Assembly: GCA_964016885.1 (NCBI GenBank)
Contig: OZ024742.1
Coordinates: forward strand, 231,012,001-231,076,000
Source: Eledone cirrhosa
Lineage: Eukaryota
Reading direction: 5' to 3'
DNA length: 64,000 nucleotides
The position numbers and the translations under genes are program-made. Below, piece after piece: positions 3,872 through 62,393 of this stretch; within the stretch, counting starts at the first letter, position 1, and the number at the start of each line of letters is the position of its first letter. The notes beneath the pieces are model-generated. The model ran no database searches, was not told the DNA's origin, and saw only the letters and a list, made by a program, of their open reading frames with translations.

Positions 3872-4061
3872 TAATAATTGTTTCTATTTTTGGCACAAGG
3901 CCAGCAATTACCCAGTGTATTACTGGTACTTTATTTTATCGACCCCGTAAGGATCAAAGGCAAAGTTAACCTCGGCGGGATTTGAACTCAGAATGGCAAG
4001 GGCCGTAACTCTATCCGTCAAAGCATGGCGTTCGACCCTCTACCAATACTGCCAATCCACC
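3872..4061 (-). mobile_element. Nin-domain SINE
   Basis: Full-length reverse copy of the 2584 family. Confidence 0.9.
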
Positions 4062-13039: not shown

Positions 13040-13231
13040 ATAGGAACAAGTAAGACCCCGGCGGCTGAGCTCAGGCCGTTTCGACGGCTAATTCTGGACT
13101 GAATTAGCCGTCGAAACGGCTTGAGCTCAGCCGTCGGGGTCTTACTTGTTCCTATTACCCACTCTACTACCGTAAGTATTGAGTACTTTGGTGCGTTATG
13201 GTCCACCTAGTTCCTTACCACATTTCCTTCG

Positions 13232-13234
<3 letters not shown>
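13040..13234 (+). mobile_element. Palindromic PLE-end element (half-hammerhead hairpin)
   Basis: Hairpin 13040-13155 with loop TGGACT. Family also at 17690-17893, 48397-48580 and 50264-50323. Between (TA)n tracts. Confidence 0.8.
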
Positions 13235-17657: not shown

Positions 17658-17689
<32 letters not shown>

Positions 17690-17693
<4 letters not shown>

Positions 17694-17893
17694 AACCAGT
17701 AAGACCCCGACGGCTGAGCTCAAGCCGTTGCGACGGCTAGTTCTGGACTGAATTAGTCCAGAATTAGCCGTCGAAACGGCTTGAGCTCAGCCGTCGGGGT
17801 CTTACTGGTTCCTATTACCCACTCTACTACCCCAAGTATTGAGTACTTTGGTGTGTTATGGTCCACCTGGTTCCTTACCACATTTCCCTCGTT
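17690..17893 (+). mobile_element. Palindromic PLE-end element
   Basis: Hairpin 17690-17814 with loop GAATT (17750-17754); same family as 13040. Confidence 0.8.
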
Positions 17894-18212: not shown

Positions 18213-18620
18213 AGAGATGACCCCTTAGCCTTTGTCAAGGCAGAATTCTAGGAGAAGGAAAACTCTGATATAACACCTGCAACTCTAATGGTATCCAATG
18301 ATGTTGACTTGTTCTTCTTTTTGGTAAATATCATCTTGGTTAAGAGAGTCGGACTGGCTTTGTGCAGTGCCTTCGCTCACTGTAAAAGCTTCACGGCACA
18401 GGCATTACTTTATATCTGGAGATCTCTCTGCACTTGTCACCACAGGGTACAATGGGCCCAACAATATGTGTCAGTAATTGTCACAAGTGTAGTGTTTGTA
18501 CCAGAGTTTTCAAGTCGCTGGCTGGACTAAAAAGTCACACTCGTTCAGCGCATCGGTAGGGGTTTTCCTACATAGATATAAAGTAGTGGCCGTACTCGAA
18601 AACGAGTTGGCAGCCACCAT
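18213..18620 (+). mobile_element. Non-autonomous RTE-like element, 5'-truncated
   Basis: Near-identical to the reverse complement of 61787-62190. Encodes a CSVCTRVFKSLAGLKSH zinc-finger remnant. Confidence 0.7.
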
Positions 18621-18838
18621 ACATATATATATACATACATATATGTATATATATATATAGGTTATTAGGTGGGTAACTCATAGTTACTAGAGGCGACGCT
18701 GGGTGAAGCACTCGATGCTGTTACTGTGTCTGTCTCTCGGTAGATTGTTCTCCAAGTTTAAGGCGGCCGAGTGTATATAAAATGACTATAAGCATTGCAG
18801 CTTTTTGTAAACTTTATTTCATATTACAAATTGTTTCT

Positions 18839-18923
18839 ATATCTGAAGAAGTGTCGATTAAGTGTCGGGATTCGATCGCATGATCAAACCCTAGCTGATC
18901 AATATTGAAACAAATTGTAATAT
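18839..18923 (+). ncRNA. Type-I hammerhead with long stem II
   Basis: ATAT-CTGAAGA-AGTGTCGATT...GATCAATATT-GAAA-CAAATTG-TA-ATAT. An inverted copy of 18907-18950 lies at 18794-18837. Confidence 0.75.
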
Positions 18924-19252
18924 GAAATAAAGTTTACAAAAGGCTGCAATTATTGTCATCAGTGGCTGGTGCAGAAATGGAGTAAAGTATTCATTAAAAC
19001 AACAACAGAAGGCCGGACTGGAAAATTTACTATATATATATGTGTTTGTGTGAGTTTGTGTGGCGCGTGTGTGTGTGTTTGTGTATACAGGTGTTTTTCA
19101 AGAGAGCAATGTTAGCTGCGTAAGCCATTTAAGGTAGAACTTCCGCCGGATGTCGGCTGATTTGTCACCTTTTCATTATTATTCCGTCTGGTGGTGCAAG
19201 GGCATCACGCAATCAAGGCATATCATAGAAAGAAAAGGAACCAGATGATTCT

Positions 19253-21145: not shown

Positions 21146-21693
21146 AAAGAATGAAACGAAATTTCATTTCTCACTCTTAGTACGGCTGGTACTTAAATGT
21201 AAGTATGTATGTATACGTACATACATATATGTATACAGACGTACAGTAGTATGTATATATGTACATACATGCACACATATATATATGTACGTATGGGTTT
21301 ACCGAACATTTATATTATAATGCTCGTGGATTGGCAGTATCGGTAGAGGGTCGGACGCCATGCTTTCCAGCATAGTTAGGTCCCTTTACGATCTGAGTTC
21401 AAATCCCGCCAAGGTTGACTTTGCCTTTCATCCTTACGGGGTCGATAAATTAAAGTACCAGTAATGCACTGGGTAATTGCTGGCCTTGTGCCTAAAGTAG
21501 AAACATTTATATTATAATGCTCGGTTTCTTTGTAAACAAACAGCCCGAATTACGTCGTACAGTGTTCAGGCAACCATCGTCACCTTTTTGTTCAACATAT
21601 ATACGTACATATATATATATGTGTGCATGTATGTGTATATATACATACTACTGTACGTCTGTATACATATATGTATGTACGTATACATACATA

Positions 21694-22177: not shown

Positions 22178-22337
22178 GTAAGACCTCATAATTCGTTGTG
22201 TATCTTATTAAATTTAATTTTTAAAAATTAAAACAAAATACCTGATAACGATCAAATATGTTTGATCGTTATCAGGTATTTTGTTTAAATTTTTTTATTA
22301 AATTTAATAAGATAAACAACGAATTATGTGGTCTTAC
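22178..22337. repeat. Imperfect ~78-bp-arm palindrome
   Basis: Centred on CCTGATAACGATCAAA-TATG-TTTGATCGTTATCAGG. Confidence 0.85.
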
Positions 22338-32010: not shown

Positions 32011-32634
32011 AAAGAAAGCAAAAATAATGGTTTCTTATAAGAAACCATTATTTTTGCTTTATTCGGTTTATTTTCTTTACATATTGTCCAGGCATGCAGT
32101 TTTTCCACGATTAGGTCAGTTGGCGGCCCACGTTCCAAAATACCTTATCTCGTGCAACGCCGGGTACCACTGCTAGTGGTTAATAAGTGTTATCATGACA
32201 CATGTTTACATAAACACAGTTTAGATCTCTACTTTCGTATCTAAGTAACACATTAGCAGCATATGATAGCAAGTACAGGCTCTTGACGTCAGCGTCTTGT
32301 CTTTCAATGAAATAATTGCATAAACCAGCTGAACCCGTGGAGATTTCAAGGTTTAATTAGAAACAACCACTAAGTATTAAAGATTGATATGACATTTTAA
32401 ATGTTGTACTCATAAGTTATATACAGATATGCAAGTAATAAATATACAGTACTTAATTACATATAAATTGAATAGATTTAACAAATGACTGAAGTTACCA
32501 AAATGAAATAATTTACTCATTATAATTTGAGTATAAATATTATATTTTCCTACACCATAGGTTTTTAAACATTACGCACCACCGCCACCACTCTATCAAT
32601 CTGTATATCTATCTCTATCTAGCTGTCTCTAGCA

Positions 32635-37520: not shown

Positions 37521-37600
<80 letters not shown>

Positions 37601-37639
37601 GATATTAACAAATGGAAACTATATTTATAAAACCATATT

Positions 37640-37704
37640 TATTTCATTATACATATTTCAAGGATACCAAGTTAAATTATGGTATGCCTTCATCAGACAA
37701 AATA
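37640..37704 (-). ncRNA. Type-I hammerhead (left arm)
   Basis: Reverse complement of 37838-37902. Confidence 0.85.
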
Positions 37705-37837
37705 CAATATATACCAGTTTTATAAATAAACATTGACGTACCTTTTCAAAATGCAACCGTTACTTTTGGAAGACAAAAGTAACGGTTGCATTTTGAAAGG
37801 GTACGTCAATGTTTATTTATAAAACTGGTATATATTG

Positions 37838-37902
37838 TATTTTGTCTGATGAAGGCATACCATAATTTAACTTGGTATCCTTGAAATATGTATAATGAAA
37901 TA
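37838..37902 (+). ncRNA. Type-I hammerhead
   Basis: TATTTTGT-CTGATGA-AGG.ATACCA/TGGTAT.CCT-T-GAAA-TATGTA-TA-ATGAAATA. Confidence 0.85.
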
Positions 37903-37941
37903 AATATGGTTTTATAAATATAGTTTCCATTTGTTAATATC

Positions 37942-38020
<79 letters not shown>

Positions 38021-46930: not shown

Positions 46931-47290
46931 GAGGTCACAGAATGTGTGACGAAAGAACTTTGACAATATATGAACAATCGTCTGGTTGTGAAACCAACCA
47001 ACCAATCGGAAATTTATAAATTCCTAAATCTATAAATTTAATTTATAATAAATTGAAGTGAAAGCAACTGGTGCGTGTGTTTCTTATTGGCAACATGACC
47101 CTCCCAAAGCATAACAATATCGGTTTCAACACACGTTTTCAGATAAAGAATCTTGCTAAACAAATTCAGAAACGAAATATATATATATATATGGGGGGGG
47201 GGGGGGTATGTGCGTGTATATATAAGTTTATCCCGGGTTCAATCGATAAGTAAGGTACTCAATACATACCACAGTATAAATATTTAATAT

Positions 47291-47370
47291 AGAAATGGCT
47301 TCTATAGGACTAGAACTGTTTCATTTAGGATCCTGAATGAAACAGTTCTAGTCCTGTAGAAGCCATTTCT
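47291..47370. repeat. 80-bp spacerless palindrome (half-hammerhead)
   Basis: Centre GGA|TCC at 47330/47331; two G-T mismatches. Confidence 0.9.
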
Positions 47371-48359: not shown

Positions 48360-48397
<38 letters not shown>

Positions 48398-48478
48398 CGA
48401 AGGAAGTGTGGTAAGGAACCAGATGAACCACAACGCATCAGAGTACTCAATGCTTAGGATAGTAGGAAAATGTTCAAG

Positions 48479-48572
48479 ACCCCGACGGCAGAGCTCAAGC
48501 CGTTTCGACGGCTATTTCTGGACTAAATTAGAATGTTTACCGTGGTAATAAATAGCCGACACTTTCAGGGGT
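48479..48572 (-). ncRNA. Decayed hammerhead, non-palindromic parent of the 13040/17690 family
   Basis: ACCC-CTGAAAGT-GTCGGCTATTT...AAATAGCCGTC-GAAA-CGGC-TTGAGCTCT-GCCG-TC-GGGGT. Confidence 0.7.
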
Positions 48573-49029
48573 AATTCCTCTTATGGGAAGATTGTAGTTG
48601 CCAAAAGGGTTGGTCAAAATTTCTTGTAAACACAATTAAATCTTTCATGGCGGTGGGTGGGAGGTGAGGGTGGCTGAACTTGCCTATAGAACAATGAGCG
48701 AGTGGGTGGAGCCGGTCAAGCGTTGAAAGTGAATTCTATACAGCAAAACTAAGGAGTGTGTAAGAAATTAGGCTAGTTATAAAGCAGGCGAAAAAAGAGT
48801 TCTGGAGTAATCTGGGAGTGGGAAGTTATAAAATTAAATGGTTAATAAATTGAGATTAAAAAATTAAAAAATAATAGATAAAAAAATAATAATATTAAAA
48901 AATTAAATAATAAAAAAAATAAAGAATAATAAAAAGAACTAGAGTCTAAAGCAGCTGCTATATTTTTAGCTGGTATTGCGTTTTTGGCCAGTGCTATATA
49001 AAATTTACTATAAGAATCAACCATTCATG

Positions 49030-50181: not shown

Positions 50182-50267
<86 letters not shown>

Positions 50268-50319
50268 AACGAGTAGGACCCCGACGGCTGAGCTCAAGCC
50301 GTTTCGACGGCTAATTCTG

Positions 50320-50372
<53 letters not shown>

Positions 50373-61253: not shown

Positions 61254-61272
61254 TAGATAGATACATACATAC

Positions 61273-61741
61273 ATGGTGGCTGCCAACTCGTTTTCGAGTA
61301 CGGCCACTACTTTATATCCATGTAGGAGAACCCCTACCGATGCACTGAACGAGTGTGACTTTTTAGTCCAGCCAGCGACTTGAAAACTCTGGTACAAACA
61401 CTACACTTGTGACAATTATTGACACATAGTGCTGGGCCCATGGTACCATGTGACGACAAGTGCAGAGAGATCTCCAGATATAAAGCAATGCCTGTGCCGT
61501 GGAGCTTTTATAGTGAGCAAAGGCACTGCACAAAGCCAGTCCCACTCTCTTAACCAAGATGATATTTACCAAAAAGAATAACAAATCAACATCATTGGAT
61601 ACCATCAGGGTTGCAGGTGTTATATTAGAGTTTTCCTTCTCCTAGAATTCTGCCTTGACAAAGACTAAGGGGTCATCTCTCCCGGTGATTTTGGATGGCC
61701 ATTGACTCTTAAGAGCTCCTTTGCCCTTTGACAGGTTTTGA
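61273..61741 (-). mobile_element. Non-autonomous RTE-like element, 5'-truncated
   Basis: Near-identical to 61787-62250; (CATA)n on both sides. Confidence 0.75.
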
Positions 61742-61786: not shown

Positions 61787-62393
61787 ATGGTGGCTGCCAA
61801 CTCGTTTTCGAGTACGGCCACTACTTTATATCCATGTAGGAGAACCCCTACCGATGCGCTGAACGAGTGACTTTTTAGTCCAGCCAGCGACTTGAAAACT
61901 CTGGTACAAACACTACACTTGTGACAATTATTGACACATAGTGCTTTGCCTTTGGTACCATGTGACGACAAGTGCAGAGAGATCTCCAGATACAAAGCAA
62001 TGCCTGTGCCGTGAAGCTTTTATAGTGAGCAAAGGCACTGCACAAAGCCAGTCCCACTCTCTTAACCAAGATGATATTTACCAAAAAGAAGAACAAGTCA
62101 ACATCATTGGATACCATCAGGGTTGCAGGTGTTATATCAGAGTTTTCCTTCTCCTAGAATTCTGCCTTGACAAAGGCTAAGGGGTCATCTCTCCCACTGA
62201 TTTTGGATGGCCATTGACTCTTAAGAGCTCCTTTGCCCTTTGACAGGTTTTGTTTTTAGTCCTGCAGGATGTCCAAAGTCACCCTCCTCACCAAGAAACC
62301 TTGGTGGGGTTGCCAGTTTAGTCGCCAACGACCCGACCATGAGACAGGTTGTACTGGGATACATGTTACCAGTAGCACCAAGTGGTGACCTGA
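61787..62393 (-). mobile_element. Non-autonomous RTE-like bipartite element, apparently full length
   Basis: 5' leader shared with 63218-63713, zinc-finger 3' remnant, (CATA)n flanks. Confidence 0.7.

Follow-up and report, generated by a model that had tools for sequence, protein, structure and literature searches.

Penelope-like elements (PLEs) of the Hydra clade (Craig et al. 2021, PMC8557442) have a single ORF that joins a reverse transcriptase (RT) to a C-terminal GIY-YIG endonuclease (EN), with RW[K/R], DKT, CxCX5C, CxxC and CxH motifs, a hammerhead ribozyme in the pseudo-LTR (pLTR), (TA)n targets, an inverted 5'-truncated copy and a tail on one end. The family described here is alike in all of these traits, although most of its insertions are two-armed stubs of ~200 nt, with a tail of 79 nt versus 30 to 40 nt; inversion points and transcription starts are not mapped in the parts of that work drawn on here. 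In the Poseidon PLE of Anolis, studied in vitro (Frangieh et al. 2024, PMC11167929), two internal RT starts bound the tail, both target strands are cut and extended, the hammerhead lies upstream of the starts and the template is uncleaved RNA, and each of these has a counterpart in our reading of the present family. Neither head-to-head products nor run-off at a start site is described in the sections of that study that we cite, whereas here both putative RT start sites are found in one insertion, on opposite strands. Adineta Penelope junctions (Arkhipova et al. 2013, PMC3846280) also show head-to-head inverted pLTRs, junction palindromes and TATA and Inr-like pLTR motifs; self-priming on an antisense template was proposed for them, while our junction statistics favor two sense-templated cDNAs ending at a start site.

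Both the promoter and the start site of the Drosophila virilis Penelope element likewise lie within the pLTR (Schostak et al. 2008, PMC2377424). Its 5'-UTR intron ends at helix I, so that the start lies upstream of the ribozyme; the start predicted here instead splits the ribozyme. PLE hammerheads (Cervera and de la Peña 2014, PMC4209133) share with ours a U3-A8 core, an extra base before stem II and a self-complementary loop III, except that stem III is 5 to 6 bp here, unlike in the minimal forms, and opposite-strand hammerhead pairs were noted there in Schistosoma. In L1 twin priming (PMC11702581), as here, a second RT is primed from the other target end, the inversion junction is end-joined and an extra G is found at full-length 5' ends, although the second priming of L1 uses microhomology and that of this family two fixed sites. 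Inverted ends, tails and pLTR promoters have all been described for PLEs before, and twin priming is likewise known. How the inverted ends form and what the hammerhead does are given as open in the passages we cite from PMC8557442, PMC3846280 and PMC11167929, and in the literature searched, a partial coverage that leaves room for an earlier mention, PLE inversion points were nowhere tied to a start site or a cap G.

We analyzed a window of 64,000 nt, part of the 3.0-Gb assembly of Eledone cirrhosa. Element positions are counted from +1, the A of T(C/T)AGT(C/T) in hammerhead loop II, a point picked post hoc from the data; the stem II 3' strand spans +8 to +18, GAAA begins at +19 and the predicted ribozyme cut follows +41. 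Hammerhead positions follow the conventional numbering. The features are as follows.

13040..13104, minus strand: short arm, subfamily B, element +60 to -4; +1 is the A of TCAGTC at 13100.
13095..13104, no strand: junction of this insertion, loop TGGACT (13095-13100, +6 to +1, antisense) plus overlap.
13101..13233, plus strand: long arm of the same insertion, +7 to +139.
13113..13139, plus strand: hammerhead 3' half, with GAAAC, stem III, GUC and the start of the stem I 3' strand (sequence, alignment, pair counts).
13155..13233, plus strand: PLE "tail," +61 to +139, in the long arm only; in PMC11167929 the tail is the stretch between two RT start sites, as outlined there.
17689..17753, minus strand: short arm of the second insertion, +60 to -4.
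17755..17893, plus strand: long arm of the second insertion, +1 (17755) to +139.
47206..47370, no strand: control, a palindrome of hammerhead family D inserted in (TA)n; the core is a canonical CUGAUGA, and the boundary lies upstream of it.
48396..49008, minus strand: subfamily A read-through copy, PLE 3' region with a whole (decayed) hammerhead at 48476-48572.
48521..48526, minus strand: TTAGTC, predicted Initiator, +1 at 48524, within loop II.
48548..48554, minus strand: TATTTAT at -30, predicted TATA-like box, overlapping the stem II 5' strand.
50263..50323, minus strand: short arm without a partner, flanked by (TA)n runs; it ends at +1 (50323).

A first-pass annotation had described palindromes at 13040 and 17690 with loops TGGACT and GAATT that retain only the GAAA...GTC half of a hammerhead, together with a copy at 50264-50323 halting at the same place, and these observations hold. 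A palindrome scan of the window returned 13040-13155 (55-nt arms, loop TGGACT) and 17689-17815 (61-nt arms, loop GAATT), both embedded in (TA)n, with the GAAA...GUC half as their only hammerhead part and followed by the 79-nt tail, to 13233 and 17893, respectively; the third copy is the lone inverted arm. The layout at 13040-13233 is an inverted arm of 65 nt followed by a forward arm of 133 nt, with (TA)n on both sides. Its two arms have in common the 4-nt overlap GAAT (13101-13104), and its junction register was seen again in two other loci (L052 and L080); in the second insertion, 17753-17754 can be assigned to either arm. The stem III loop of the half hammerhead is a self-complementary GAGCTC, and the predicted cut follows 13135. 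The copy at 48479, which the annotation had treated as the intact reference, does contain a whole hammerhead, but its "CTGA" is a decayed TTGAAAA minus one base, and it belongs to subfamily A, whereas both palindromes belong to subfamily B. Two further statements had to be corrected: CTGAATTAG, taken for a site of the element, is in fact the junction, and subfamily B naturally has a different upstream sequence; the turn, placed inside stem II, lies within the 7 nt of loop II that immediately precede the stem II 3' strand.

The window also holds other AT-rich inverted repeats (22178-22337, 32015-32060 and 18782-18959), the first with sequence in common with L097:7632-7822 and the last with L151:5404-5578. 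Dispersed repeats are found at 18213-18632, 61261-61680 and 61867-62192, including a 420-nt inverted pair 43 kb apart, and families of 150 to 190 nt with 6 to 9 copies at 3872-4061 and 21330-21523.

Long copies of the element were retrieved by genome searches. On the minus strand of locus L232, hammerhead repeats at 1545 and 5179 flank an open frame of 682 aa that contains YRDD and YIGLT, the N-terminal part sitting in another frame, which gives the RT plus GIY-YIG endonuclease ORF between pLTRs expected of an EN+ PLE. The optional 3' tail and inverted 5'-truncated copy are found as well: ends are fixed, and 115 of 119 arm pairs consist of a tail-less short arm and a tailed long arm, which supports the earlier view of the insertions as PLE inverted 5' ends. 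The L232 frames contain RWR, DKT, CNCPDRSSC, CNLC and CKH, and the target is (TA)n; the set outlined for the Hydra clade in PMC8557442 is RWK, DKT, a CxCX5C linker, CxxC and CxH in EN, and a (TA)n target. By motifs and target, the element thus matches a Hydra-clade PLE, in favor of which the Neptune clade was set aside, and the palindromes are real 3' stubs of it. A Pfam search of the element ORF gave no match and a PDB search nothing useful, while its Atlas neighbors at 0.96 to 0.99 carried PF26215, some with PF01541 or PF00078. The first ATG of the L232 ORF lies ~230 nt past +1 (minus strand, 1533-1764), so the predicted promoter would yield a 5' UTR with both RT start sites.

Three subfamilies, A, B and C, have the hammerhead in common. 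The first-pass annotation had assumed a CUGA core; among pattern matches in untruncated copies (one of them a mis-parse), we found TTGAnAA in 35 of 42, CTGAnAA in 4 and TAGATAA in 3. In RNA, UUGAnAA corresponds to the U3-A8 variant described in PMC4209133, and the 3-8 pair, GAAA and UH of a type I hammerhead are present, but not in the decayed 48479 copy or in the half copies. Across 13 copies, the three helices of the type I fold had 90% of cells paired and 14 two-sided changes, mostly in stem II, a level that none of 500 shuffles attained. By its predicted fold and core, the hammerhead is of type I. Minimum-energy folds were not always hammerheads, a competing AGCCGU-CGAA-ACGGCU hairpin being seen, and an Rfam scan of the window gave no hammerhead among the matches listed (150 of 236), solely microsatellite-driven miRNA matches. 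Non-LTR retrozymes, which are defined in the description we cite as tandem repeats with a whole type I hammerhead each (10.64898/2026.07.22.740005), were rejected, the copies here being head-to-head half-ribozymes rather than such tandems.

In order to sample the genome evenly, we took 140 evenly spaced 10-kb stretches (1.4 Mb), which held 74 units (53 per Mb), extrapolating from this 1.4-Mb sample to a genome total of ~1.6e5. Among 112 scorable arms, 5' ends fell at +1 to +8 in 51, at -4 to -1 in 10 and at -25 to -5 in 2, with 6 read-through arms and 43 ending downstream of +8. Thus, a window of 12 nt in loop II (-4 to +8) takes 61 of 112 arm ends, and only 8 go beyond it, which agrees with the breakpoint enrichment at stem/loop II anticipated by the annotation. 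The stop rate per base rose from 0.001 to 0.023 downstream to 0.14 to 0.20 at +8 to -4, and the rise was the same for long and short arms although their starts are 79 nt apart; against a uniform null chosen to be conservative, binomial p values for the clustering were 2e-12 and 2e-9.

A larger set gave 183 of 308 arms ending at -4 to +8, with the mode at +1 (37/308) and all three subfamilies represented. It consists of the systematic 112 arms and 196 from loci picked with downstream queries that began at ~+28 (B), ~+30 (A) and ~+9 (C), that is, within the arms, so that early stops of long arms are undercounted in the added part. Thirteen duplicate loci, arms at locus edges and loci picked with upstream sequence (L002-L030, L231-L246) were left out. 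The near-identical loci L020, L021 and L022 (74.3 to 74.6 Mb of the window's contig) were counted once, as were L219 and L226; both sets are probably segmental duplications. Among arms with 5' ends up to +30, short arms reach (TA)n at +58 to +62 in 98 of 129 cases and long arms at +139 to +141 in 106 of 131. Lone tails (+61 to +139), or tails parted from the body by (TA)n, occur at L027:559-628, L041:1278-1348, L024:1873-1931 and L080:6250-6370; these could reflect cDNAs that stopped very early, or insertions made later at the inner start site. Four loci (L060, L161, L194 and L219) have short arms with internal duplications between two AGCCGTCG direct repeats flanking stem III, which look like slippage or repeated priming. 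Summed short-read contig depth dropped more than 20-fold across +1 in two runs; this depth is not a copy number, and the upstream sequence diverges between subfamilies.

The boundary has features suggestive of a transcription start. TYAGTY is found at +1 in all three subfamilies, and TxAGT is invariant while the remainder of loop II diverges. We take TYAGTY to resemble the consensus of a Pol II Initiator and TATTTA to be TATA-like. TATTTA(A/T) is present at -29 to -31 in all 19 A copies, in 12 of the 14 B copies and in none of the 7 C copies, although in A and B TATTT doubles as a stem II strand, so its place is set by structure anyway. Counting only arms whose preceding base is not supplied by the partner arm, a G preceded the arm end in 15 of 25 cases at +1 versus 18 of 97 at +2 to +60 (Fisher p = 9e-5), whereas the natural -1 letter is T or C in 40 of 40. 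The excess persisted in the systematic sample alone (5/7 versus 6/38, p = 0.006) and without two doubtful cases (p = 5e-4). In L1-made insertions, a G of this kind is the sign of a copied cap (PMC11702581). Counted against a start site were the width of the peak of arm ends, which is 8 to 12 nt and not a single base, and the presence of G before the end in 7 of 19 arms ending at +2. From these sequence features, we infer that +1 is a capped Pol II start inside loop II, with a second start at -4 in subfamily B; the start site of Penelope lies in its pLTR as well (PMC2377424, in the part cited above).

Taken together, we consider it likely, with a probability of roughly 0.75, that each stub consists of two cDNAs copied off the capped RNA 5' end in loop II and joined head to head. 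The pLTR promoter would start the RNA at +1, and the element enzyme would prime one cDNA from each end of the cut (TA)n target. By analogy with the two tail sites of the anole PLE in vitro, we infer internal RT starts, one per target end, at +60 and +139; in the 13040 insertion, 13040..13104 would be the cDNA primed at the inner start site and 13101..13233 that primed at the outer one. Both would run off at the capped 5' end of the transcript and, being of the same polarity, could not anneal, so they would be joined end to end, either by template jumping or by end-joining repair, in some cases following a brief snap-back (as at 13040 and L050). The inverted piece of an L1 insertion derives from further 5'; here, two fixed sites would give rise to two cDNAs of one and the same 5' RNA segment, hence the palindrome. 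An RNA starting at +1 has neither the UUGA strand nor the stem II 5' strand, so its hammerhead could not fold, and the whole ribozyme would be present solely in read-through transcripts from upstream, the source of the rarer long copies. The CUGA-side strand, which the first-pass annotation held to be deleted at a stall, would thus be missing from the stubs because it was never in the template.

The junctions bear on whether one cDNA or two made each stub. Among the 115 pairs, the short arm reaches further 5' in 58, the long arm in 42 and neither in 15; in the systematic sample, the short arm goes further in 24 pairs and the long arm in 9, an asymmetry that the two-cDNA model does not explain. 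Inserted letters mark 62 of the 115 junctions, 29 are blunt or share 1 nt and 10 overlap without a loop. At four subfamily C loci (L208, L174, L222 and L225), a recurrent junction directly links an arm end at +1 to one at +2, too tight a join for a hairpin. Long read-through copies have scattered inversion points. Chimeric pairs were considered and rejected, since the 8 apparent subfamily mismatches among 119 pairs look like misassigned short or old arms.

An alternative, which we consider unlikely, is a single cDNA that, having run off the 5' end of the RNA, snaps back and serves as its own template; the endonuclease would then cut one arm back to the ATT at +60, and the center would be rearranged later by loop inversion or repair. 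There are precedents, since R2 shows snap-back after full-length cDNA (PMC11371274), self-priming was already proposed for PLE palindromes (PMC3846280), and ATT, the cut motif of the anole PLE (PMC11167929), is present at +60 to +62, as far as these sources are drawn on here. Paired arms are also more alike than arms of different insertions (93% versus 90%, p = 1e-8), although such likeness is expected equally from fold-back and from one RNA or one source locus templating both cDNAs. Under snap-back, however, the copied arm should never lie further 5', and a loop of at least 3 nt and a paired primer are needed, and the data show otherwise: fold-back of the long arm fits only 5 of 115 junctions and that of the short arm 9, and eight pairs leave no room for a hairpin loop. 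The 58 pairs in which the short arm goes further conflict with a short arm copied from the long cDNA, and a tail on the long arm that is absent from the short one calls for two cDNAs. In addition, L126 has an extra G on both arms, and the sample contains lone short arms (11 truncated, 4 read-through). The 13040 insertion illustrates both sides of the earlier proposal. Its short arm extends to -4 and its long arm to +7, so the short arm is not a copy of the long cDNA, and the idea that one nascent cDNA primed its own second strand fails here. Even so, a brief fold-back of the short cDNA probably lies behind this junction, the tail then coming from a second cDNA, although the computed pairing is weak (-0.4 kcal/mol); snap-back thus probably made some junctions but not the generality of them. 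In L050, 8 nt of snap-back are followed by a jump to the other arm.

The mechanism put forward in the first-pass annotation, that RT stalls on hammerhead stem/loop II and the nascent cDNA folds back to prime the second strand, now appears quite unlikely. The stops do fall inside the hammerhead, the fold is conserved, with its 14 two-sided changes, and 14 of 115 junctions are compatible with a hairpin. Nevertheless, the stops come after the stem II 3' strand has been copied, once this stem is unwound, and not at the 3' foot of the helix, and at stems I and III the rate is 0.003 to 0.01 per base. A stall would not add an extra G and should leak, yet just 8 of 112 arms pass -5. Family D, sampled like the main family (86 arms), with a boundary set by eye, has the same short- and long-arm layout, with TATAAATA 30 nt before its boundary. 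There, 41 arms end at -3 to +7 of the boundary, 10 pass it and 35 stop at +8 to +26; the boundary is 6 nt upstream of CUGA, which is kept in 51 of 86 arms, so that the stop lies upstream of the catalytic core. In 5 of 5 ungapped read-through copies, TATAAATA or CATAAATA was found at -29 to -31, a spacing that suggests that the boundary tracks the promoter and not a hammerhead helix. The extra-G test was confounded in family D, and no linked PLE ORF was found in the loci sampled. A near-perfect palindrome at 37551-37991, also in (TA)n, corresponds to the 3' end of another PLE, found in L233 (34 to 41% protein identity to L232). Each of its 218-nt arms contains CTGATGA...GAAA, and the palindrome turns upstream of this hammerhead-like motif, again at odds with a stall.

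It is also very unlikely that the +1 end was made by a nuclease cut in loop II (by a host RNase, piRNA slicing or the PLE protein), with two cDNAs then running off. Such a cut would explain the sharp boundary and the two arms equally well, and loop II is largely unpaired; it leaves unexplained the extra G, the fixed Initiator-like motif in a diverging loop II and the TATA spacing in family D. The cleavage site of the ribozyme itself (+41/+42) was ruled out as the stop, since ends are not concentrated there (1 of 55 long arms, counting +40 to +44). Finally, amplification of a few ancestral palindromes as MITE-like units, or assembly artefact, is scarcely credible: outer ends are alike in nearly all copies and a few registers recur, but the 115 pairs have 104 distinct registers over three subfamilies, pointing to independent events, point changes separate the two arms of one copy, and the junctions are present in short-read contigs.

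This read support, asked for by the first-pass annotation, is partial at 13040 itself. The 13040-type junction was found in 16 short-read contigs of another run, with a loose end at -4 and fold-back letters, so that a long-read artefact can be dismissed for this junction type, and one contig crosses 13054-13139, but none spanned the whole locus when contigs were compared with it, the (TA)n flanks being skipped. The contigs also have joints from 13097-13104 (+4 to -4) to many downstream places.

Joining two cDNAs off a capped 5' end may be part of a broader picture, for which we see the odds as even: symmetric double priming would be PLE-wide, the head-to-head join would be the origin of inverted ends, the promoter would be written into the hammerhead as an RNA-class switch, and ~1e5 stubs would record the transcription start. 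One enzyme dimer would start a cDNA per target end at the two tail sites. With the TATA-like box in stem II and the Initiator in loop II, promoter-born RNA would be unable to self-cleave and read-through RNA able to do so. The family provides a large natural data set that separates models of PLE inverted-end formation, the two-cDNA model specifies exactly which products the in vitro PLE assay already in use should yield, and the boundary offers a route to PLE promoters from DNA alone. It also cautions against taking the "half hammerheads" and short palindromes of such genomes, which are by-products, for new RNA motifs or MITEs. The ~1.6e5 hairpin-forming units, an extrapolated number, would be a sizeable share of the repeat landscape of this genome and, if the reading is true, palindromic stubs could be read as a record of transcription starts in any PLE-rich genome without RNA data.
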